Shown here: positions 7,293 to 43,316 of the stretch, one piece after another
How the letters are laid out: each line of letters begins with the position of its first letter
How positions within the stretch are numbered: position 1 is the stretch's first letter
Assembly: GCA_018240245.1 (NCBI GenBank)
Contig: JAFEGD010000122.1
Location: 1,901-65,900, forward strand
Direction: 5' to 3'
From: Spirochaetota bacterium
GTDB taxonomy: Bacteria; Spirochaetota; Leptospiria; Turneriellales; Turneriellaceae
Length of the DNA stretch: 64,000 nt
Translations under genes and position numbers: made by a program
The notes under the pieces: generated by a model
What the model saw: the letters and a program-made list of their open reading frames with translations, nothing else
Databases searched by the model: none
What the model was told of the DNA's origin: nothing

Positions 7293-8066
7293 CTATGGCT
7301 GCGCCCCCGCCGGTGCAAGCGCCGTCTTCTGAACGTCGCTACCCAACGAGTAATCGAATTGGTGTTTCTTGACGAACGTTTTTTCACCGCGCACCGTCTC
7401 GTGATATAAAATTTCAATAAGCTGCTTATTCGCGTTATAATGGTACTCGGCGTAGCGCGCACCGGTGAGCCCGCTTTTGACGCGCGTGGTCAGGAGACCG
7501 TTTTCAAATATCGATTCGACGCGCGAGGTTAGTTCGCCCTTGGCGTTGTAAATATTTTGCAGAACCCCTTTGGGTGTCGGCTGCAACCGAAACGATTCGG
7601 TCATCTTTTTTTCGACGATGCGTTTGCCGGCGACAAGCTTGCCCGCCTTGTCGTAGACGTAGCGCCATTCGATCTTGGCGTTGCCGCGCACGTCGTGAAT
7701 CAGCGTCTTATCGAGTCGTTCTTTCTTATATATAAGTTCGATGTCTTCGGCGAGATTGTCGGCGGCGTCGAAGAGTTGTTCGCGCACAAGGCGATTATTA
7801 TCGTATGCGTAGAGTGTGTGCCCCGTGGCAATTTTTTTTGTCGCGGCGAGGCGAAAATATTGCGCGCGCACGAGTAAATTATCTTTGTAATAAAATTCGG
7901 CGGTTTCGGTCGCGTTACCGGCGGTGACGGTTTCAGTCGCCGGCCGCGTAGCAAACGTATTGAGCTTTTTATACGCTTCGAGTGGGTCAAAAACTTCGGG
8001 ACCCGCCATCAACGCTGGGGTTAATCCCACGCACAAAAAAAGCAAATTAGTCGGTAAAAGCCTCAT
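7293..8066 (-). CDS. Secreted MORN-variant/YwqK-like repeat protein
   Basis: Repeated Y(Y/A)YD.N.L(V)....F-type units (FYYKDNLLVRAQYF, YAYDNNRLVREQLF, YVYDKAGKLVAGKRI, YHYNANKQLIEILY). A signal peptide begins at the internal Met (MRLLPTNLLFLCVGLTPALMAG), although the ORF extends to 8138. Confidence 0.6.
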   Translation of the reverse strand: MRLLPTNLLFLCVGLTPALMAGPEVFDPLEAYKKLNTFATRPATETVTAGNATETAEFYYKDNLLVRAQYFRLAATKKIATGHTLYAYDNNRLVREQLFDAADNLAEDIELIYKKERLDKTLIHDVRGNAKIEWRYVYDKAGKLVAGKRIVEKKMTESFRLQPTPKGVLQNIYNAKGELTSRVESIFENGLLTTRVKSGLTGARYAEYHYNANKQLIEILYHETVRGEKTFVKKHQFDYSLGSDVQKTALAPAGAQP

Positions 8067-32601: not shown

Positions 32602-33789
32602 CTAAACAAACAATGATTTGAATTCGTCGAATACAATCGCCGCGTCGCGCGGGCCGGGTGCCGCTTCGGGGTGGTACTGCACGCTCAAAATTTTATACTT
32701 GTCGCCGAGGATTCTGAAACCTTCGGCGCTCAAATCGTTCGCATTGATTTCAAAGTTCGCCGCCGGAATTGCATTCTTCAATGCATCTTCGGCGACAGCG
32801 AAGCCGTGGTTCTGCGATGTGATAATCACTTGCTTGCGATAATCCGCTTTGACGGGTTGATTGCCGCCATGGTGGCCGAATTTTAGTTTGTACGTTTGCG
32901 CTCCTAAGGCGAGTGCGAGCATCTGGTGCCCTAAGCAAATGCCCAAGCAGGGTTTGCCGGTGTCGATCAATTGCCGAATATTTTGAACGCCGCGTTCGAC
33001 GACTGCCGGGTCGCCGGGGCCGTTACTAAAGAAGAAGCCGGCGTAGTCGCTTGCATGAAATGACTGTTGATCGGCGAGAGCGATATCGCCGGCAAATACT
33101 TGCGGATTGAACCCTGCGGCGATGAGTTCGCGCAGAATGTTATATTTAATGCCGAAGTCGAGCACGGCGATTGGCTTCAGCTTGGTTTGATCGATTTTTT
33201 TTGTAGCGAAATAATGCGCGACGAAGCGATTGGCCGCGACGCCGTCGAAATCGGCAACGAGGTTGAGGCCTTCCATGACTGGGCGCGCGGTAACTTTTGC
33301 GGCAAGCGCTTCGGCTTCTGCCTGATTTTTGGGAGCGGCAAAGATGCCCGCAGTCTGTGCTCCGCCGTCGCGAATCTTGCGCACGACCGCGCGGGTATCG
33401 ATATCGCTGATTCCCGTGACACCTTGCTCGGATAGGAAAGTCGCGACCGGTTTATTGCTACGAAAATTACTCGGTATTTCGCACAGGTCGCGTACGACGA
33501 CACCCGACAGCCACGATTTTATCGACTCGTTGTCGTCGTCGTTCACGCCATAATTGCCGAACGAAGGGTACGTAAAGCAAACGATTTGGCCTAAATAGCT
33601 GGGGTCGGTGAGTACTTCTTGGTAGCCCGACATTGCGGTCTGAAAAACCGCTTCGCCGAAGACACCGTCGGGCGCGGCTTTTGCGCCAAAGAGGCGACCG
33701 TGAAACAATGTGCCGTCCGAAAAAGCGAGAACCCCTTTATCGGCTGCGGTTTGCATGCCGACATCTTCAAGACGCGCGACACGCGGCAA
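32602..33789 (-). CDS. carA: Carbamoyl-phosphate synthase small (glutamine amidotransferase) subunit
   Basis: The GATase triad context PCLGICLGHQMLALALG, plus SQNHGFAV and VQYHPEAAPGP. An alternative start is the Met at 33756. Confidence 0.92.
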   Translation of the reverse strand: MPRVARLEDVGMQTAADKGVLAFSDGTLFHGRLFGAKAAPDGVFGEAVFQTAMSGYQEVLTDPSYLGQIVCFTYPSFGNYGVNDDDNESIKSWLSGVVVRDLCEIPSNFRSNKPVATFLSEQGVTGISDIDTRAVVRKIRDGGAQTAGIFAAPKNQAEAEALAAKVTARPVMEGLNLVADFDGVAANRFVAHYFATKKIDQTKLKPIAVLDFGIKYNILRELIAAGFNPQVFAGDIALADQQSFHASDYAGFFFSNGPGDPAVVERGVQNIRQLIDTGKPCLGICLGHQMLALALGAQTYKLKFGHHGGNQPVKADYRKQVIITSQNHGFAVAEDALKNAIPAANFEINANDLSAEGFRILGDKYKILSVQYHPEAAPGPRDAAIVFDEFKSLFV

Positions 33790-33841
33790 AGCGTTAAGTG
33801 ACTAGGCGGAAACTCGCTGGCGCGATTTCCCGTATAGTCAC

Positions 33842-35197
33842 TTAATACAACTTCAATTCGCGCGCGAGTTCGAAAATATTACCGACTTCTTTTTGCCGCT
33901 GAATCAGCGCGTCTTCGGATAAAATTTTACGCACCGCCGCTTCGGGCAAATTTTGCATGCGGTGAAAATTCTCGCGATAAAATCGCAACGGCAGTTTGCG
34001 GCAAAAAATATGGCTTTGAAAATAAAAGACTTGGTGTGCGATCAGAAATCGCATCGTATCGTAATCGTCGACGGCTTCGGCGGTGATAATCGCCTCGCGG
34101 TTGTCGGCAAGGCGAATACAGTAGTCGATAAACGCGAGGTTGTCGAGAAATTTTGTCTGGTCTTCTTCGGGCTTGAACTTGAAGCTGATCGGGTCGAGTT
34201 TGAACTCTTTAATCATCTCGCCGAGATCGAGAATCACTTGATGGCTCTGGCTTTTGACGCCGAAGTCGTCGGCGGCAAAAGAAATACCAAATTGAAAAAA
34301 ATAATGGCAGACGTCTTTGAGTTTAATCTCTTTTTCTTCGTACGGCTTCTCGACAAGCTCTAAACGCACATTTTGTGGATTCAGTTTTTGCCGTGTGAGT
34401 AGCTCGTTAAAACGAAATACTTTCTCGGCCGACGGAAAAGTGTCGATGAGCGTCTGCGGCGAGACGTTAAACTTCAAGAGGCCGGGCGCTTCGTGGCAGG
34501 CAGCGACAATTTTTTCTAAAATTAGAAGCTCGATACGGTTGGTATCTTGGTCGTTCGGTATGTCGCGCAAGAGCTCGGCATAGCTTGCATAGAGTTCGCC
34601 GCCGACGAATACCTCGCCGCCCTTGACCGAATACGTTTCTTTTTTTGCATCGAAATGAATAATCGGTTGAATTACCGCATTCGCCTCGACGTTGGCGAAA
34701 TAGTCGTTCGCGCGGTTGAGGTATGTCCAGCTCCAGCGGACAAGATTATCTTTGAGATTCTTATGCGCCGCCTGCACTAATTCGTCGAAAATTTCTTGCG
34801 CATCGGAAATATAGTTACATTGAGTGCGACCGATGCCGAAGTCGAAGCTCCCATCGCCGTCTTTCGGTGCCTCGCCGTGGTATTTGCCCATCGCGCCGTC
34901 GATATTCGGCAAGAAGCCCGGCGCATCGTCTGCGGGTACAATGCCGACGTAAAACCGCTGCTCGTCGCCGAGCACGTACATCTGTATCGACTGGTTGGTC
35001 TCGGTGTTGACGCGGCGAACAAAATCGGGAATTTTTTTAAGGAACTCGTCGATGCGCATGCCCTTGAGATTTTCGACGAGCATGAGAAAGAGTGGCTTAC
35101 CGCGATTGCGATCGATGAACGTCGCACGAAAATTTTTTTCGGCATCGGCGAAACCGAAATTCTCGACAGTCTTTTGTAGAATCGAACGCAATTGCAC
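33842..35197 (-). CDS. Protein with a divergent C-terminal EAL-type (c-di-GMP phosphodiesterase-like) domain and an unknown N-terminal domain
   Basis: Ordered EAL-domain landmarks: IQPIIHF...GGEVFVG (EVF in place of EAL), RLELVE, FAADDFGVKSQS, IKEFKLDP, ITAEAVDD, YFQSHIF. Confidence 0.6.
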   Translation of the reverse strand: MQLRSILQKTVENFGFADAEKNFRATFIDRNRGKPLFLMLVENLKGMRIDEFLKKIPDFVRRVNTETNQSIQMYVLGDEQRFYVGIVPADDAPGFLPNIDGAMGKYHGEAPKDGDGSFDFGIGRTQCNYISDAQEIFDELVQAAHKNLKDNLVRWSWTYLNRANDYFANVEANAVIQPIIHFDAKKETYSVKGGEVFVGGELYASYAELLRDIPNDQDTNRIELLILEKIVAACHEAPGLLKFNVSPQTLIDTFPSAEKVFRFNELLTRQKLNPQNVRLELVEKPYEEKEIKLKDVCHYFFQFGISFAADDFGVKSQSHQVILDLGEMIKEFKLDPISFKFKPEEDQTKFLDNLAFIDYCIRLADNREAIITAEAVDDYDTMRFLIAHQVFYFQSHIFCRKLPLRFYRENFHRMQNLPEAAVRKILSEDALIQRQKEVGNIFELARELKLY

Positions 35198-35372
35198 TAC
35201 GCTGCCTTATGGGTTTGCCCAACTCTGCGTAAAGGTCAAATTGCTGGGTATAAATCGGCGGGACTGCATACGATAGGGCTGTGGCTCAGTAGTTTAATTG
35301 CCCCCAGCAAGGAGGAGTGCCAAAAAGAACAAATGTTTACGAACAAAATAACTATAGGACTCTCAGCGCATT

Positions 35373-36380
35373 TTAGTTATTACTCAGTTGCACAACCTTC
35401 GTATCGAGCCCCAATTTTCGTCGCGCGTCTTGAATCGCGCGCGCGCGCGAATAGGGCGCCTTTTCGGCTGCGGGTAGCGTATCAAAATTGGCGATGAGAC
35501 AGAGTTGCGGCGCACGCAAGATTTCGGGCATCAGTCGCGCCGCCAGCGCCATTTCGCGCGCGGCATACGCGCGTGCCGCATCGCTAAAAAGAGGGCGCCC
35601 TTGCGCATCTTTCATGCCGAGCAGACGATAGTTCTCGGCGACGACCTTGAGATCGAGCAAGCCAATCGCCGAAAACGATTGGAGCGATTTGCGCGTTATG
35701 AGCTCCAACGAATTGACGCCCCGCAAATCGGGGGGATTGATAACGGCGACGCAATTTTCTTTGAGTTCGATTCTTTGGCCGAATCGATACGCGCGCATCA
35801 AATCGTAAGTAGAAACTCCGCCGAGCGTCTGTTGGCGCTTGAGGTATTGTAATGGGCTTGCGAGCGAAGTTGCGATCGCGAAAAAAAAGACGGTCGCGAC
35901 GACAGTGAGAATGGTTTTTGTTAGCAGCGCATAGTTTTGCCGCCACGGAAATAGTCGCCGCAGCAAACGTACTGCGACGATCAGTAAAAGCCACGCGCTC
36001 GACCACACGAGTATCGGTTCGCCCCAAAAGGGCACTGCGGCGGCGAAGGCGATAAACACGAGTTGCGTCACCAGGCGCGCGCGCGTTAAGAGCGCCGCTT
36101 GCAATAGCAGAATCAAACCCCACCAAACGCGGCTGCCGATTCCGCCGATCACCGCGAGCATAAAGTTTGCCGCAAAGCCGAGCGGTTTTTCAAACAGCGC
36201 CGCGTCGCGATATTGGTAGAAGAGTAAAGTATCGAGGCCGACGCGCCGCTCTGCCGCGAGCGAAAGCGTATTTTCGAGCGGCGTGCCGGTAATAAGCAGC
36301 CAGAGCGCGAGGAGGGCAAAAACGGCAACGACGACAACCGCGCGCCCTTGTCTTATTTTCAGTTCGCTGTTCTGTATCAT
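35373..36380 (-). CDS. Polytopic membrane protein (about 5-6 TM) with a ~150-aa C-terminal soluble domain; third gene of the MNIO operon
   Basis: Hydrophobic segments AVVVVAVFALLALWLLITG, FAANFMLAVIGGIG, VWWGLILLLQAALL, LVFIAFAAAVPFWG, ILVWSSAWLLLIVAV and ILTVVATVFFFAIATSLA. The start overlaps the upstream stop by 4 nt. Confidence 0.65.
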   Translation of the reverse strand: MIQNSELKIRQGRAVVVVAVFALLALWLLITGTPLENTLSLAAERRVGLDTLLFYQYRDAALFEKPLGFAANFMLAVIGGIGSRVWWGLILLLQAALLTRARLVTQLVFIAFAAAVPFWGEPILVWSSAWLLLIVAVRLLRRLFPWRQNYALLTKTILTVVATVFFFAIATSLASPLQYLKRQQTLGGVSTYDLMRAYRFGQRIELKENCVAVINPPDLRGVNSLELITRKSLQSFSAIGLLDLKVVAENYRLLGMKDAQGRPLFSDAARAYAAREMALAARLMPEILRAPQLCLIANFDTLPAAEKAPYSRARAIQDARRKLGLDTKVVQLSNN

Positions 36381-37945
36381 GCGAGAATGCCTGGGAGCGC
36401 TAAAATACGAAAAACTTTTTTCACCGCTGCCGCCGTGATTTTTTTCTGTACTTCGGCGGTGGTAATGTAATCGGCGAGTAGGCGCGGCTTTGCGAGCCCC
36501 GCGATAAAATCGAATTCGGCGCGGCTCAAGATTTTGGCTTCAACTGCAAACGTGCGACGGTAGAGCAAAACGTATTGCGGTGTTTGCGTTGGCCTTTTGA
36601 CGAGCCTTAAACTTGCGGCGGCTGTATTGTGGAACAACGTAGTGGCGCTCGACCACAAATAGGCGTTCTTGGAGAGGCGAACTTTACCCGCAAACAAATC
36701 TTGCGGGCTTTGGTCGAGCGCTTGGCAATAAAGGTTATAGCGAGCAAGTTCGAGCAGCGCCAGATCGGCAAGGTAGGGTCGATGCGGAAAGTGCTTCTGC
36801 AAGAAACGCGGTAAATCTTCGCCATAGCGCCCTAAGTCGGCGTGCGTCGGTGTGTGCGCGGCGATATATTTTTGCGCTAGTCGCAAAAAGGCTTTGTCGC
36901 CTAAGCTTGCTTTCACGAGAAAATATTTTTCTTCAAGCGCCTGCGTGTGGCGCAGCGTATGCGCGGTGCGGTAGACTTTCTGCGCGCCCGTGGGCGTAAG
37001 ACTACCCGCCGCGCGCTCGCCGCGCTCGGCTTTGCGCGAATAGATATATTTTTGCCAGCGCGTTTCTTCTTTTAGACGCTTTCGGGTGGCAGCGCCACCT
37101 GAATGCATTTTATTGGCATAGCGCGCAGGCATCGGTTTCGGTGTTAGCGACTGCGCGCGCAAAATTTCGCGTTCGAGCACTCGAAAAGAAGGAATCGCCG
37201 CGTCGCGCTCGAGACTAACGGGCTTGTCGCCAATGTGGTAGCGCGCCTCGCGGTAAAGTTGTAGCACAGGAGACGAAATTTTCGCCGCGTGCGTATCGAA
37301 GAGATGCGTTGCTAAATCGGTGAAGCCCGCCAAATGATAGCCGGCGACATGTGCGGGATTAATCCCCCGGATAAAACGGCGCGCGTTGTAGCGAAAGTTC
37401 GTCGCGTTGACGAAGACGTTGTTGATATCGAGCAGAATCTTGCAGCCCGATTTTTCGGCGATAAAATTCAGAAACTCGACTTCGCTCATTTCGTTGTGCG
37501 GGTACTCCATATACGCCGAAATATTTTCGAAGACGAGCGTGCGCTTGAGGTACGCTTGCGCGGCATCGATATTTTGCACGGCACGCTTGGCCATCGCATG
37601 CGTCAGCGGCAGCGGCAACAGCTCGTGGTACTCTTCGCGGCCAAAACGCGAAAAGCAAAAATGATCGGAGATTTGAAACGGTTCGATGCGTTCGGCGAGA
37701 CCGCGAATTTTTTTTAGTAGTTCGCGGCGCACGCCGTCGACGCTGCCGATTGAGAGCGCGACGCCGTGCAGCGCCACGGGATATTTTTTGCGAATTTCAG
37801 TCAGTACGTAGAGCGGCGCGCCGGTGGTATCGATAAAGTTTTCGGTGATCGCCTCAAACCAACCGATGTCGGTTTGGGGCTCTGTCAGCAAAAAGTTAAA
37901 ATGCTCGCCTCTGAGGCCGAGCCCGACTAGATTTTTCGGGGTCAC
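36377..37945 (-). CDS. Fusion protein: DUF692 multinuclear non-heme iron oxidase (MNIO; MbnB/BufB-like) + DUF2063 (BufC/MbnC-like partner) domain
   Basis: N-terminal ~280 aa carry the DUF692 landmarks GLGLRGEHF, WFEAITENF, VALHGVALSIGS, QISDHFCF, LVFENISAYM, ILLDINNVFVNA and GYHLAGF. The C-terminal ~230 aa follow the DUF2063 pattern (...LGDKAFLRLAQKYIAAHTPTHADLGRYGEDLPRFL...PYLADLALLELARY). The GTG start overlaps the precursor stop (GTGA). Confidence 0.85.
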   Translation of the reverse strand: MTPKNLVGLGLRGEHFNFLLTEPQTDIGWFEAITENFIDTTGAPLYVLTEIRKKYPVALHGVALSIGSVDGVRRELLKKIRGLAERIEPFQISDHFCFSRFGREEYHELLPLPLTHAMAKRAVQNIDAAQAYLKRTLVFENISAYMEYPHNEMSEVEFLNFIAEKSGCKILLDINNVFVNATNFRYNARRFIRGINPAHVAGYHLAGFTDLATHLFDTHAAKISSPVLQLYREARYHIGDKPVSLERDAAIPSFRVLEREILRAQSLTPKPMPARYANKMHSGGAATRKRLKEETRWQKYIYSRKAERGERAAGSLTPTGAQKVYRTAHTLRHTQALEEKYFLVKASLGDKAFLRLAQKYIAAHTPTHADLGRYGEDLPRFLQKHFPHRPYLADLALLELARYNLYCQALDQSPQDLFAGKVRLSKNAYLWSSATTLFHNTAAASLRLVKRPTQTPQYVLLYRRTFAVEAKILSRAEFDFIAGLAKPRLLADYITTAEVQKKITAAAVKKVFRILALPGILA

Positions 37946-38205
37946 ATCTCCATCGTCATCGCTTGAAATTTACCTTTCTTCGCTTTGCACTCGGCGGCAG
38001 TCATTTTTTTCCAACCTTGGCCTTTGCATGCATTCATGCCCGCACAACTATGCGCTTTGCTGCCGCAATCGCCTTGGCCTTTGCAGCCGTTGATGCCGTG
38101 GCATTCGCCTTTTTTCGCTTTGCTCTTCGCTTCTTTTGCGCCGACACCGCCGGCAAGTGCGATACCCGCGAGCGCTGCAGTCATGAGTAGACTTGTTTTT
38201 TTCAT
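37942..38205 (-). CDS. Bufferin-like RiPP precursor peptide (Sec signal peptide + Lys-rich 6-Cys core)
   Basis: MKKTSLLMTAALAGIALAGGVGA|KEAKSK... gives a signal peptide with an AxA-like site. The core has six Cys in the duplicated module C-H-G-I-N-G-C-K-G-Q-G / C-A-G-M-N-A-C-K-G-Q-G. An SD-like AAGGGGA lies ~9 nt upstream. It sits directly 5' of the MNIO gene. Confidence 0.8.
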   Translation of the reverse strand: MKKTSLLMTAALAGIALAGGVGAKEAKSKAKKGECHGINGCKGQGDCGSKAHSCAGMNACKGQGWKKMTAAECKAKKGKFQAMTMEM

Positions 38206-38323
38206 TGCTGAGTTTCCCCTTTATGTCGTTAATGAACTAATCATGTACGCAGGCGCGATGTGGTGGAAAGCGTAAATCTGGTGGTCGGCATGTCGAAAGA
38301 ATACTCTATAGCAATATCTATCT

Positions 38324-39619
38324 ATGCTTAACAAGAATATACCGACCCTTGCATTGCTACTTGCGGCTACAGCGTGGCTTGCCAGTTGCGCTTCGATCGA
38401 TCTTTTGCCAAAGATTATCGCTCCCCCTGTAGCTAAAGAGCAAATAAAACCCAAACCCGCAAAGAAAGTGGCGGCGATGCAGACAACCCTACCGGGGATT
38501 GAAACCGTACTGGCGCATCCGATTGTGGCGAAAGATAAAGATCGCTTTTTTGATTGCGTCGAAAATTCGGCGGCGACGCGCCCCATCCATTTCCCAATTC
38601 CCGAATTTCAATTTTTTGATGCCGACGAGCATACCAAGCGCCGTTTCTATCTTACCGAAGAGAACGGTTGGCCGTTTGTCGTCGGTTACCACGCGACCGA
38701 GCGCGCAATGCCCAACGGCACTTGGGTCGTGGCGATGCGCGGTGAGGCGTCGGCGTTTCATAAGTCGGCGCTGTCGTCGCCCTTAATCTCTTTGATGGAG
38801 ACTCTACCCGGCGCTGCGCTCATCACGGTCGACGAATATATCTATAACGGCAAAAACGGCGAACACAAGCGGTTGAATCCGATTTGCCATCGCAGCGTTT
38901 ATGGCTCGCGCTACATCGGCCCTGAAACCCCCGGCTTTGAAAACGGGGGAGCGACCCGCGTGCTACGAAAAATATTACCGATGAAGAACCCCGTTGTGTT
39001 CGTTTCGTATAGTAACGCAACGTCGCCGCGCGGCGAATTTGTCGCGCGTAAGTTACGCGGCAGAGAAAAAATCGATTACCGTGCGTTTCGCGACCCGAAA
39101 GAATTTTTGACAGCCTACATCTTGAAAACAAGTTTCAACGAGAACGTTTACGCCGGTATCAAAGGTTTTGTCGATATCGAAGGTAACTTTGAATATACCA
39201 AATCGTTTTGGGATCTCATGGCGTTCATCAAATTAGAAATTGAGCGCAACCCTAAAAAATTTTTTTACAGCGCCGTGCGTGTCGAGAAGCCCGACGCTTT
39301 TCCAGTGCAGACGACGATGATTCGGTTATTTAGCCTCAAGGGTGTCGAAGGCAACGATGGCGTTATTCGTTACAAAAATCCTGCGGGCAATATCGTGATC
39401 GATGTCTTAACGAACCCGTACCAGCCGCATTATGCGGGCGTGGGCGGCGATTTGCGCCATACGACACAATTTACTCCGGCAGATGCAAAAACTGTTCACC
39501 GCGCATACGTTTCTCACATTGGCATGCCCGCATGGACGCTCAAGCGCATCGCGAGCACAACGAAATTTTTTGATAAGGAGATGCAGCGGTACCCACAGAA
39601 AGCAATGCTTAATCCATGA
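38324..39619 (+). CDS. Predicted lipoprotein, unknown function (431 aa)
   Basis: Lipobox TAWLASCAS. Divergently transcribed from the MNIO operon. No recognised domain. Confidence 0.6.
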   Translation: MLNKNIPTLALLLAATAWLASCASIDLLPKIIAPPVAKEQIKPKPAKKVAAMQTTLPGIETVLAHPIVAKDKDRFFDCVENSAATRPIHFPIPEFQFFDADEHTKRRFYLTEENGWPFVVGYHATERAMPNGTWVVAMRGEASAFHKSALSSPLISLMETLPGAALITVDEYIYNGKNGEHKRLNPICHRSVYGSRYIGPETPGFENGGATRVLRKILPMKNPVVFVSYSNATSPRGEFVARKLRGREKIDYRAFRDPKEFLTAYILKTSFNENVYAGIKGFVDIEGNFEYTKSFWDLMAFIKLEIERNPKKFFYSAVRVEKPDAFPVQTTMIRLFSLKGVEGNDGVIRYKNPAGNIVIDVLTNPYQPHYAGVGGDLRHTTQFTPADAKTVHRAYVSHIGMPAWTLKRIASTTKFFDKEMQRYPQKAMLNP

Positions 39620-39640
39620 AAATAATCCGCCCGATAAGCA

Positions 39641-40792
39641 ATGAAGATTCGCCCTAGTTTTTCTGTTTTTTTTGCGGTTACAACTTTATTTTTCACACTT
39701 TCTTGTTCGAGCAGCAATATTCTCAGGGTAACGCCCGAGCATCAAGAATATCTGCGGCATGTCGACGACGACGTCTTTCGCGACGGCGGCATCGAACGGC
39801 TCTTCACGAACCTAGGCACCGAAGGCGATATAATTTGTAACATGATTTTGGGGTATGCTCCATACGATGCGGCGACTGCGCAATCGTTTTCAACGACGCT
39901 CAATTTTCAGAAAACGCCGAAACAAAAATGGTACGATAACGTTATTCCCTCGCTCATCGCGGGTTGCTTTAATTTTTACAAGATGAACGACCGCGGAGTG
40001 CATACGGTGTTCGCGCTTTTAGAGAAACTATATCCCGAACCCAAAGACTGCTATACGGTTGGGTTTTCGCAATATTATTTAATGCGTCAGTTTATGCGTT
40101 GCGACCGTTTGACTGCGATCGACGCCGATTGGCGTATTCTCAAAGCGCATTACGATTTTCATCAGCAGATTCGTAAAAAAGATCTGGGTGCTGATGCGCT
40201 TTCGCTATTACGCAATATCGAACTTGCGTGGGTCGCGCACTTCGATGTGAGACCAGAACCGCGCGAGAGTGTCCGCAACGAAGTCAATTTCTGTATGCAA
40301 ACCGAGCGTGCGTATTGCTTGCGCGCCTTCGACGCCTTTGTCGCTTTGCCCGAATTGCCCAAGAGCGAACTATTGCTCGGCTTTATTCACGATGCGGAGT
40401 TCAAACCGCGTAGAAATAATATGAGCGTGGTTTTTGCGAGTAATGCGCTCGATGTCGATTACACTAGCAAAGAAAAATTCGACAAAATGCTTGCGGCAAT
40501 GAAAAACTATTTGCCCGAAGGCAAGCGCGTTGCCGTGATTTATCAAGCGGGCGACAGCGAAGATATTGCGGCGTATGAAATGCTCAAAGGCGAGGGCGAC
40601 ACATTCGAGGTGTCTATTCGTTGCCGAGACAATATTCGCTGGTCCGATCGTTATATTAAGCTTATGCGCGACAAACCGATTGTTACATGGTTCGATAAAC
40701 TCTTAGATTATCGCTCGCTGAAGGGAGTGCCGCGCTGTCATGCGGGCGGTACGCGCCGCTACGTCACCGACCCGTCGAAGAAAAAAATATAA
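39641..40792 (+). CDS. Predicted lipoprotein, unknown function (383 aa)
   Basis: Lipobox FFTLSCSSS. Lies 21 nt after the preceding lipoprotein gene. It has segments that look alignable with the C-terminal half of the 41568-43316 product. Confidence 0.6.
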   Translation: MKIRPSFSVFFAVTTLFFTLSCSSSNILRVTPEHQEYLRHVDDDVFRDGGIERLFTNLGTEGDIICNMILGYAPYDAATAQSFSTTLNFQKTPKQKWYDNVIPSLIAGCFNFYKMNDRGVHTVFALLEKLYPEPKDCYTVGFSQYYLMRQFMRCDRLTAIDADWRILKAHYDFHQQIRKKDLGADALSLLRNIELAWVAHFDVRPEPRESVRNEVNFCMQTERAYCLRAFDAFVALPELPKSELLLGFIHDAEFKPRRNNMSVVFASNALDVDYTSKEKFDKMLAAMKNYLPEGKRVAVIYQAGDSEDIAAYEMLKGEGDTFEVSIRCRDNIRWSDRYIKLMRDKPIVTWFDKLLDYRSLKGVPRCHAGGTRRYVTDPSKKKI

Positions 40793-41565
40793 TCGCTCAG
40801 CCAGCGACCTTGGACAAAATCGGTTTCGTGCCCGGCGAAAACGATGGTATCTTTATCGAGCGACCGTAGAAATGCGCGACTATTTTCTACAGAAAAAGCG
40901 GCGGCGCGCGGTAACGGTATTTTCTTTTGGCAACTTTCGCGAAAGTAACACTCGTCGCCGGTGAAAAGAAACGTGCCGCTTATGCCTCTGTAATACACAA
41001 CTTGCGAACCCGAGGTATGCCCGGCAACGAGCTCTACGGAGAAATTTGTATGTAACGGCGTATTGCCGTCGATAATTTTCAAGTGTCTTCGCGATTGCAA
41101 AGACATCAACTTGGACTTGAGAACTTTATCTTGTAGCGATGCAACTTCGCGCTGCTGTACAACAACAGTGGCATTGGGGAATTTATCGACATCGAGCGCG
41201 TGGTCGAAATGCGCATGCGTCAACACGATATATTTTATAGCTTGAGGGGTTAATCCTAAATCACCGAGCAAGCTTTCTACCGAACGAAAATTGCGCAGCG
41301 AAAAGCGCCGGCGGAGCGCAGCGTCGGAAAAGCCACAGTCGACGAGCGTATTATCTCCCGAACTGTCGCGCACGAGGTAAGCGAGCCAGTTCAGTTTTAC
41401 CGTGCCGCTTTTTTGAAGACCGTTGACGAGCTGCGCCGGGTAATCGCTCACCGCATAGCGGAGCGCATAGATTTGCGGCGCTAAGACGGCATTCTTGTTT
41501 TGCGTATTATGGCAGCCGAGCGCGACGCACCAGAATATGCACGCGAGAAAAAAGCATGCGCGCAC
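40759..41565 (-). CDS. Metallo-beta-lactamase-fold hydrolase lipoprotein (lactonase-like)
   Basis: Lipobox CVALGCHN. MBL motif VLTHAHFDHALD plus LVDCGFSD and a C-terminal GHT/GHE histidine. Confidence 0.8.
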   Translation of the reverse strand: MRACFFLACIFWCVALGCHNTQNKNAVLAPQIYALRYAVSDYPAQLVNGLQKSGTVKLNWLAYLVRDSSGDNTLVDCGFSDAALRRRFSLRNFRSVESLLGDLGLTPQAIKYIVLTHAHFDHALDVDKFPNATVVVQQREVASLQDKVLKSKLMSLQSRRHLKIIDGNTPLHTNFSVELVAGHTSGSQVVYYRGISGTFLFTGDECYFRESCQKKIPLPRAAAFSVENSRAFLRSLDKDTIVFAGHETDFVQGRWLSDYIFFFDGSVT

Positions 41566-41567
41566 CG

Positions 41568-43316
41568 CTATCGATCTTGCTCGAGAATACCTTTCGGTAT
41601 CGCGGCGGGAATCTCAATCGTGCTGAAGTCGGCCCGCTCTTTCGAGACGACTCGATACATCTTGAAGTAATCCATAAAATCGTAGTGCGGTAATAAGAGT
41701 TTCTTCTGATAATTATACGCGCCGTGGACTACATAATGCCAGAAGCCCTTGAAGCCTTTACGCCACGCCGGGTGCCACGGGTATTCGTGTACCGAACGAA
41801 ATGTAATCGAAGCTTCGTCGAACGGCAGCGAGAGAACATTACGTTTGTAGTTCGCATCGTTCGTGCTGTAGTCCCAGAACTCTTCGGCGTTCGAGGGATA
41901 ATAAACGCGAATCGGTACGCCGAGCGCTTTCGCCGCTTTGCCGATCGAGCGCATCGATTTATCTTTCAACATATCGCCGGGCACAATTGCGATGCGATCT
42001 TGCGTATAGAGCAAACGAATATAACGATAGTTCTCTGCGTGGCGCAACCACCCGAAATCGCCTTGCTTTGCGTCGGCGCGCGCGCTCATGCGATAGTGCT
42101 TGAGCAAGTTCGGCGCATTGTTGCGATAAACTTGTTGTATGAAATCGAGATCGCTGCGCTCGCTATAATACTTGGCGAGAATGTCGAGCGCTGCTTTAGA
42201 ATTTCTCTTCTCGAACTTGGCGAGAAAATCGGCGACGCTCGGCGATTCGACGACGAACGCGCGAATAATTCTGTGCAGCGCGTTGATATTTACGTCGAAA
42301 TCGAATAGCCAAACGAAGCGGCTCTTCGCCAGAGCGATATACGAATAGTTCGCGTCGGCGGCGACACCCGCATAACCGCCGCCGAGGTTGCGAATATACG
42401 GCGCGAAAAAATAATTCTGCGACTCGTTCGGCGTAAAATACGTCACCGGGTCTTTGCAGTGTGCGGGCGACGTGTACTTCGCTTTGCAGATCGGTTTATT
42501 GAGCGTGTCGGTCGCTTCGAGGTTCTGCAAGAGCTCGCGCTCTTTTGCCGAAAGCGGGCCGGGGTCGCCGAGCGGTGCCGGTGGGTTTTTCAGCATCCAT
42601 GGCGGGGCTTGCGTGGGGGGATTATTATCGGAAGCGCAGCGGAACGCTAATTGTGTTTTTGTCGCGTACGCAATCGCTGCGGTCTCGTTCGTGTTGGGGT
42701 TAAAAGTCTTTTTTAATTTCAAAGATTTGTCGCAGGGGAAAACTCCACTACAAATACCCAGCGGGTTTGCGGGTTCGCAAATATTTTTATTTTTTACCGT
42801 GCACGACGCGCCCGGCGAAAGCTGCCAACTGTTCGACCATTCGGCAAATGCGCTTTTTTGGAAATCGGTATGCGCAGCGCCCGCTTTCAGTTCGGCGAGC
42901 GTCGGTAGCCGCCCCCCCGCCCACGCGCAATAGCGGAGCGTAGCTTCGATATTGAGTCCCAGCGCCGGCGATGCTGCATTTGCGCGACTATCGCCCGGTT
43001 TGTAATAACTATTCGCATCGCATTGCAGGTCGGCAACGCAGCGCGCGTAGTCGGCATTGGTCACGACCGCCGCTTCGATGAGAACGTTATTCGACACGGC
43101 AGGCGCAGCGTCGACGGCGAGTTCGCGATCAATCGCCTTCGCCTCGAGACAAAGATGGCGCGCATCGATATTTTTACAGTCGTTTAGATCGCTGCTAGTG
43201 AATGAAAAATCATTTGCCGCCGACGCGGATGTCGTTTTAACCTTAGCCGAACTACAATTGGCTAAAAAAATCGCCAGCGGTATTATAAAGAAGCTGCGCA
43301 GCGTGAGCGATTGCAT
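41568..43316 (-). CDS. Lipoprotein with an N-terminal FGE/SUMF1-like (sulfatase-modifying-factor-type) segment and an unknown C-terminal domain
   Basis: Lipobox IFLANCSS. The segment VTNADYARCVADLQCD...YCAWAGGRLPTLAEL resembles the FGE-sulfatase domain core (A..YC.W.GgRLPTeaEW). The stop lies 2 nt before the MBL gene start. Confidence 0.55.
   Translation of the reverse strand: MQSLTLRSFFIIPLAIFLANCSSAKVKTTSASAANDFSFTSSDLNDCKNIDARHLCLEAKAIDRELAVDAAPAVSNNVLIEAAVVTNADYARCVADLQCDANSYYKPGDSRANAASPALGLNIEATLRYCAWAGGRLPTLAELKAGAAHTDFQKSAFAEWSNSWQLSPGASCTVKNKNICEPANPLGICSGVFPCDKSLKLKKTFNPNTNETAAIAYATKTQLAFRCASDNNPPTQAPPWMLKNPPAPLGDPGPLSAKERELLQNLEATDTLNKPICKAKYTSPAHCKDPVTYFTPNESQNYFFAPYIRNLGGGYAGVAADANYSYIALAKSRFVWLFDFDVNINALHRIIRAFVVESPSVADFLAKFEKRNSKAALDILAKYYSERSDLDFIQQVYRNNAPNLLKHYRMSARADAKQGDFGWLRHAENYRYIRLLYTQDRIAIVPGDMLKDKSMRSIGKAAKALGVPIRVYYPSNAEEFWDYSTNDANYKRNVLSLPFDEASITFRSVHEYPWHPAWRKGFKGFWHYVVHGAYNYQKKLLLPHYDFMDYFKMYRVVSKERADFSTIEIPAAIPKGILEQDR

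Follow-up and report, generated by a model that had tools for sequence, protein, structure and literature searches.

A probable bufferin 2 precursor with a fused maturase and a clade-specific membrane protein gene in a Turneriella-like spirochaete

In a 64,000-nucleotide stretch of DNA from a Turneriella-like spirochaete (contig JAFEGD010000122.1 of assembly GCA_018240245.1; hereafter the window), we find three overlapping genes headed by a small open reading frame (ORF) that very probably encodes a bufferin 2 (BufA2/BUF_6/12Cys) precursor, that is, a ribosomal peptide that is modified by an iron enzyme, exported through Sec and used as a periplasmic copper chelator. Coordinates are positions in this 64-kb window, and all window genes listed here lie on the minus strand. 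The first gene, bufA2, spans 37942..38205 including the stop codon and encodes an 87-residue protein, MKKTSLLMTAALAGIALAGGVGAKEAKSKAKKGECHGINGCKGQGDCGSKAHSCAGMNACKGQGWKKMTAAECKAKKGKFQAMTMEM; it was identified from the ORF listing, its match to the family model NF050166 and its ratio of nonsynonymous to synonymous differences (pN/pS). The second, bufBC (36377..37945), encodes a 522-residue fusion of an MNIO (BufB) and a DUF2063 (BufC) protein, and the two genes share 4 nt, GTGA, which hold the GTG start of bufBC and the stop of bufA2. The third (35373..36380) encodes a 335-residue membrane protein with about five transmembrane helices and a conserved C-terminal domain; the start of this gene likewise shares 4 nt with the end of bufBC, which makes it the probable third gene of the operon.

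The bufA2 ORF is a real gene under purifying selection. An earlier sequence-only reading of this DNA had staked its proposal on an intact frame in close relatives, and we find the 87 codons unbroken in all nine of the Turneriella-like relatives compared, against which pS is 0.60–0.89, pN is 0.12–0.17 and pN/pS is 0.15–0.27. A singleton metagenomic relative of 105 residues on a JGI contig (P0021) has a frameshift after CKGQG and runs on in the reading frame leading into the MNIO gene; it is the lone case among about 22 close relatives and represents either a sequencing error or a pseudogene. Upstream of bufA2, reading of the sequence reveals a Shine–Dalgarno-like AAAGGGGAAA (38213..38222, minus strand) that ends 7 nt before the ATG, and AAAGGAG stands at the equivalent site in relatives. 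A sigma-70 promoter scan at the locus found none, terminator-like sites are not commoner there than in shuffles, and an Rfam scan of 33000–40000 gave no match. Alignment of the upstream regions of 11 loci yielded no convincing common promoter, with a loose TTTGAC...TCTGACTAA likeness in three relatives only.

The precursor opens with a predicted Sec-type signal peptide (residues 1–23; 38137..38205), recognized from its hydrophobicity profile and the −3/−1 rule. The N terminus reads MKK and is followed by a hydrophobic stretch of 19 residues (4–22) with a peak Kyte–Doolittle value of 2.3, and the proposed cleavage site, between VGA and KE, has Val at −3 and Ala at −1. By these simple rules cleavage would fall after A23, and the n-h-c features of the signal peptide proposed in the sequence-only reading are present. 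This layout is kept throughout the family though the letters vary, and some relatives have a lipobox Cys. The predicted mature core (37945..38136), delimited by composition and family alignment, comprises 64 residues, of which 14 are Lys, in keeping with the Lys-rich core remarked upon earlier, and six are Cys; it carries a net charge of +9, with a pI of 9.5.

The six Cys lie at residues 35, 41, 47, 54, 60 and 73 (CysI to CysVI), which gives the spacing C-5-C-5-C-6-C-5-C-12-C. A motif scan places CysI and CysII in module 1, C35-H-G-I-N-G-C41-K-G-Q-G (38071..38103), and CysIV and CysV in module 2, C54-A-G-M-N-A-C60-K-G-Q-G (38014..38046), which is followed by the invariant W65. The sequence CHGINGCKGQG is identical to CAGMNACKGQG at 8 of 11 residues, a level that only 12 of 20,000 shuffles of the 64-residue core, made with its composition unchanged, attain, and at the DNA level the two modules agree at 24 of 36 bases, a 14-nt exact run included. 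The precursor sequence, the Cys spacing and the two CxGxNxCKGQG copies are exactly as the sequence-only reading gave them. Its suggestion of an internal duplication fares less evenly: the repeat is real, but it is not local, since the C-x-G-x-N-x-C-K-G pair runs through the family. Of the 120 best homologues, 116 conform to the two-module, six-Cys pattern (tested as C.G.N.C-x5-C-x(4-8)-C.G.N.C), and within these 116, column counts show that C, G, N and C are kept in both modules and K-G nearly always. Module 2 has CKGQG in 113 and a Trp as the next residue in 113; module 1 has CKGQG in only 45, its last two positions being Q, K, T or H followed by G or S. In an alignment of 39 sequences (A1) the six Cys are invariant together with G37, N39, G56, N58, K61, G64 and W65, so that conservation of the motif in related loci, also expected in the earlier reading, is found. 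Judged from these alignments, a perfect CKGQG in both modules is frequent among the spirochaete, Bdellovibrionota and Elusimicrobia members of the BufA2 family and the C-x-G-x-N-x-C-K-G pair is universal; on this comparison the repeat is a conserved element shared by the entire family, presumably serving as enzyme substrate and metal ligand, rather than a local duplication. As the duplicated Cys motif is a family signature, the precursor alone raises no new question.

A six-frame motif scan of the window found no second copy of the bufA2 motif. Within bufA2, the 14-nt sequence TGCAAAGGCCAAGG forms an exact direct repeat, with two in-frame copies 57 nt apart (within 38014–38085, minus strand). 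Recombination between the copies would remove 19 codons and leave a single-module peptide with three Cys.

The family assignment rests on the NCBIfam hidden Markov model NF050166 (“BufA2 family periplasmic bufferin-type metallophore”, Cu_RiPP_BufA2), which the window protein matches with 72.3 bits against a cut-off of 60 (E 2.7e-20, positions 5–78 of 79) and which is likewise matched by all 39 of the diverse aligned relatives. In Pfam the window protein has no match; PF10048 (DUF2282) in particular gave none at E ≤ 0.01, and none to the 39 relatives even at E ≤ 1. These results agree with the sequence-only reading, which had pointed to the 6/12-Cys bufferin subgroup rather than to DUF2282. The family was defined as BUF_6/12Cys by Leprevost et al., with Caulobacter BufA2 as the type (PMC11626156), and was renamed Buf2 in a later survey (PMC12452194); it has also been described as the “Cys-Lys” group of the “captophorins”, with NACKG among the commonly occurring 5-mer motifs (PMC13097082). 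A protein search with BufA2 retrieved 287 homologues, the closest named ones coming from Turneriella metagenome-assembled genomes (~72% identity) and Leptospira (55–57%), followed by Bacteriovoracaceae, Elusimicrobia, Alphaproteobacteria and Binatia. A scan of GTDB species genomes for N[ASG]CKGQGW confirmed no fewer than 576 loci, spread over many phyla, and most of those examined have an MNIO match just downstream of bufA2, usually with a DUF2063 match too.

Other identities were considered and rejected. A DUF2282 (BufA1) identity conflicts with the absence of a PF10048 match and with the presence of six Cys rather than four. For HvfA/oxazolin, the precursor has no GKCG, its Lys follows the Cys, and the maturase reaches 206.6 bits with the HvfB model against a cut-off of 360. 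For methanobactin, the maturase reaches 51.9 bits with the MbnB model against a cut-off of 325, and the partner is DUF2063. Pfam searches with the precursor and its relatives also gave sub-threshold matches to DUF7640, SspO, DUF7155 and one defensin-like family, which we disregarded, and a PDB sequence search with the precursor returned a spurious cytochrome c match (E 0.014) that arises from the signal peptide.

The bufBC product matches PF05114 with 282.7 bits, far over the cut-off of 25, and PF09836 with 49.3 bits. From the Pfam coordinates, the MNIO (DUF692) domain covers residues 7–267 (37145..37927) and the DUF2063 (HvfC_N/BufC N-terminal) domain, defined by PF09836, residues 317–382 (36800..36997); as both lie within one ORF, bufBC is a BufB::BufC fusion. 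It is 54–58% identical to the fused orthologues in two related loci (L005 and L008). Across the 49 related loci in which both domains could be detected, they are fused in six loci of the Turneriella clade and in one from Omnitrophota (L070), and separate in the other 42. Alignments of the MNIO domain to 3BWW, MbnB and relatives keep the HG, SDH, EN, D-x-NN, H-x-AG, DTH and ERD stretches, which we take to be the metal-ligand and catalytic motifs of MNIOs.

The biochemistry of the family has been studied in Caulobacter, where Buf2 is copper-induced and protects from copper. Modification spares its CysI and CysVI, which are likely joined by a disulfide, and its four central Cys lose 4 Da each, for a total of −16 Da (PMC11626156). 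The related Buf1 binds Cu 1:1 through the 2N+2S of two thiooxazoles, with an affinity that is femtomolar or tighter (PMC11626156). By homology with these proteins, we propose that bufA2 is co-translated with bufBC, as the observed 4-nt overlap would allow, and that the cytoplasmic MNIO::DUF2063 fusion would oxidise C41, C47, C54 and C60 (CysII–V) to 5-thiooxazoles, with a change of about −4 Da at each. The signal peptide would carry the modified peptide through Sec and be cut off after A23. In the AlphaFold2 (AF2) model of BufA2, a strand at residues 32–36, which holds CysI, is followed by a low-confidence loop at 37–64 with CysII–V, a strand at 65–69, a helix at 70–75 with CysVI and a last strand at 79–82, a topology that agrees with the description of Buf1 and Buf2 in PMC11626156. 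A Foldseek search with the precursor model, which is of moderate confidence, gave no match. From this topology and the published model, a C35–C73 (CysI–CysVI) disulfide would pin the first strand to the short helix, and the thiooxazole loop would be left free to wrap copper in the periplasm.

This arrangement bears on the sequence-only reading's suggestion of two equivalent modification and metal-binding sites, which we do not uphold. Following Caulobacter Buf2 and the AF2 model, CysI is likely a structural disulfide partner and CysIV, the first Cys of module 2, a modification target, and so the two modules would not be functionally equivalent. Because Buf1 uses two thiooxazoles per Cu, the four thiooxazoles of the window peptide could form two Buf1-like Cu sites.

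Several points weigh against this interpretation. The thiooxazole chemistry and copper binding that we attribute to the spirochaete BufA2 are carried over from the Caulobacter bufferins, and the AF2 model has a mean predicted local distance difference test score (pLDDT) of only 62. The MNIO domain scores 284.9 bits with the BufB model NF050167, 25 under the cut-off of 310, though this is still its best NCBIfam model and the alignment covers positions 1–262 of 262. The residue that immediately follows the presumed catalytic Asp of the window MNIO is Ala249 (E-R-D-A; 37199–37201, minus strand), where relatives have Asp, as in the E-R-D-D of L005 and L008 and the E-W-D-D of a Leptospira locus (L004). 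For an Asp at this site (BufB2 Asp251), contact with the Lys of Cys-Lys substrates has been suggested, and FonB continued to give product with either residue, Ala or Asp, at its corresponding position (PMC13097082). Neither a copper-responsive regulator nor another copper gene is present in the operon, and the extracytoplasmic function (ECF) sigma and anti-sigma genes found in relatives were sought in the window without success. Finally, the printed numbering of Buf2 sets CysI at Cys24 and CysVI at Cys50, 26 residues apart (PMC11626156), against a CysI–CysVI spacing of 38 in the family. In the family a distance of 26 separates CysIII from CysVI, which in the numbering of the window core are residues 24 and 50.

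Two of the features special to the Turneriella clade are the extra Lys of the peptide and its C terminus. The sequence-only reading had called the very basic composition unusual, and this holds only in part. When net charge is computed from 12 residues before CysI to the C terminus in the 116 homologues, the 96 that do not belong to the Turneriella clade run from −3 to +10, with a median of +4 and 14% Lys, the 20 members of the clade have a median of +7 with 21% Lys, and the window peptide has +9 with 22% Lys; a charge of +9 or more is seen in only 8 of the 116. The family is thus basic as a rule, with the Turneriella clade at its upper end, and part of the Lys content follows from the conserved C-K motif itself. 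The nucleic-acid association floated earlier is unsupported in a peptide with the make-up of a Sec substrate; that the peptide might associate with the anionic envelope or its partner membrane protein is speculation. The core ends in M-T-M-E-M (37945..37959), and alignment across the clade shows an [ML][ST]M[EDG]M end in all 20 Turneriella-clade proteins, with two or more Met among the last eight residues in only 4 of the 96 others. Met-rich Cu(I) motifs are known in copper-handling proteins, and by its resemblance to these the MTMEM tail could provide an extra Cu(I) site.

The 335-residue membrane protein has no Pfam and no NCBIfam match. A word-index search with it found three proteins only, and we therefore used an exhaustive search, which identified 19 representatives of its family among 1.84 billion cluster representatives. 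Its homologues adjoin bufA2 in every Turneriella-clade locus examined, including those that lack an MNIO gene nearby. Its AF2 model is confident (pLDDT 91; predicted template-modelling score 0.85), and a Foldseek search of this model against the PDB found no analogue, with a best E value of 0.059 and template-modelling scores of at most 0.2. In the C-terminal domain C210, D218 and E226 are invariant and C294 is nearly so; the positive-inside rule, applied to a simple hydrophobicity topology, predicts this domain to be periplasmic. In the relative loci L001/L012 (Turneriella sp. Bin_83R), L007, L010 and L011, bufA2 and the membrane protein gene, sometimes with the sigma and anti-sigma genes, occur with no MNIO gene within 5–6 kb. 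Stand-alone precursor genes have been reported in both bufferin families, with the maturases presumed to act on more than one substrate (PMC12452194).

The fuller relative loci run in the order bufA2, bufBC, an ECF sigma gene (185 residues), an anti-sigma gene of about 80 residues with a ZAS motif (H-x3-C-x2-C), and the membrane protein gene. The membrane gene is separated from bufBC (or bufA2) by the sigma and anti-sigma pair in L008 (7760–9379), L013 (6822–8601), L014 (6871–8658), L016 (6694–8321) and L010 (5261–7016). An ECF sigma gene after DUF2063 also occurs in some Elusimicrobia and Endomicrobium loci. A published survey reports sigma and anti-sigma genes in Buf1 clusters and not in Buf2 clusters (PMC12452194); as it places sigma genes in Buf1 clusters only, the ECF sigma/ZAS arrangement in Buf2 clusters appears to be unreported. 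In L005, the first 31 residues of the membrane protein (7865–7957) are 52% identical to the N terminus of the L008 ECF sigma factor, and from this likeness they look like the relic of a deleted sigma gene.

Further from the operon, 3–5 kb from bufA2, lie a gene for a 582-residue protein with FGE-sulfatase-like and DUF7790 domains (41568–43316, minus strand) and one for a metallo-beta-lactamase-fold protein (40759–41565, minus strand); the two are syntenic in L008. Fusions of Buf1 to FGE-sulfatase domains have been described (PMC12452194).

The constancy of the membrane protein beside bufA2 brings up a different use of the same chemistry, in which the bufferin would work mainly with that protein, either binding to it in copper-loaded form as to a sensor or receptor or handing metal on to it, rather than as a free periplasmic buffer, and in which the contact would be made through the Lys-rich surface and the Met tail. 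The membrane protein family is limited to the clade and always stands beside bufA2, even with no MNIO gene nearby; its gene follows the ECF sigma and ZAS anti-sigma genes in the fuller loci; its predicted periplasmic domain carries the invariant C210 and the nearly invariant C294; and the Met tail and extra Lys occur in the same clade. The basis of this proposal is, however, co-occurrence, a fold with no known analogue allows no function to be read from it, its topology comes from a simple hydrophobicity rule, and the window has no sigma/anti-sigma pair, and we regard the proposal as distinctly unlikely. A more specific version, which we also think unlikely but worth setting out, makes the Turneriella-clade Buf2 one half of a periplasmic copper-handling or sensing pair, such that the Lys-rich, Met-tailed peptide would dock on the periplasmic domain of the membrane protein, which in the fuller loci would signal to the ZAS anti-sigma factor and the ECF sigma factor controlling the operon.

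It is very improbable, in our estimation, that BufA2 acts as an unmodified periplasmic Cys-rich metal binder, holding metal by thiolates or folded by three disulfides, with the MNIO inactive or acting elsewhere. Such a role would suit the several relatives that have bufA2 with no MNIO gene within 5–6 kb, as well as Ala249 and the missed BufB cut-off of the window MNIO. Yet stand-alone precursors with multi-substrate maturases have precedent (PMC12452194), bufA2 and bufBC overlap in the window, the stretches taken as MNIO ligand motifs are kept, and FonB accepts Ala as well as Asp at the site in question (PMC13097082). A secreted, defensin-like antimicrobial or envelope-active peptide whose charge targets anionic membranes, as the +9 charge, six Cys on 64 residues, export signal and a few defensin-like Pfam matches among relatives (best E 0.028) might suggest, is scarcely credible, given that those matches are far under their cut-offs, that immunity or dedicated export genes are not present, that most family members are just mildly basic, and that the family model, maturase linkage and published function all indicate metal binding (PMC11626156).

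Taking BufA2 as a bufferin 2 precursor, its closest characterized counterpart is Bufferin 2 of Caulobacter vibrioides (CCNA_03001, NF050166), with which it shares the family model match, six Cys at the family spacing, the twofold C-x-G-x-N-x-C-K-G, a Sec-type signal and a place directly upstream of MNIO and DUF2063 in an operon without DoxX (PMC11626156). Unlike that system, the window has maturase and partner fused in a single 522-residue protein, an M-x-M-x-M C terminus, 22% Lys against a family median of 14%, and a clade-specific membrane protein in third place, with ECF sigma and ZAS anti-sigma genes in relatives; the host is a Turneriella-like spirochaete. Bufferin 1 (BufA1) is likewise a small Sec-exported protein modified by MNIO and DUF2063, with a similar strand-loop-strand-helix topology (PMC11626156), an outer Cys disulfide and inner Cys thiooxazoles, features that by homology would apply to the window peptide. 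It differs in having four Cys where the window peptide has six and no PF10048 match, and in that Buf1 clusters usually include DoxX and are regulated by SigF/NrsF. Oxazolin/HvfA, fontiphorin and gonophorin (the EGKCG-repeat or “Lys-Cys” captophorins) have a related maturase subfamily (PME-type-1 MNIOs) and related thiooxazole copper-binding chemistry (PMC13097082), but their motif is G-K-C-G where that of the window peptide is C-K-G with no EGKCG repeats, and an NACKG substrate was not processed by FonBC (PMC13097082). In the methanobactin system (MbnA/MbnB/MbnC), too, an MNIO turns a Cys of a ribosomal peptide into a copper-binding, sulfur-containing heterocycle; methanobactins, by contrast, are short leader-core peptides secreted to scavenge copper, their group is an oxazolone-thioamide, and the partner is MbnC rather than DUF2063.

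The window BufA2 is an ordinary addition to the known and widespread Buf2 family, here from a Turneriella-like spirochaete, and the moderately new material consists only of the clade-specific companions of the operon. Three operon-level variations, the maturase fusion, the Met tail, and the membrane protein with its sigma/ZAS genes, are undescribed in the bufferin surveys consulted. The natural BufB::BufC fusion would be convenient for studying the cooperation of maturase and partner in vitro, and the Met-rich tail may supply a further Cu(I) site. The membrane protein that travels with bufA2 is narrowly distributed and of orphan fold, and the occurrence of ECF sigma/ZAS genes in Buf2 clusters contrasts with their reported absence. 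If the proposed pairing of peptide and membrane protein were true, the bufferin would be a metallophore that serves as a signalling ligand, a role undescribed for bufferins.

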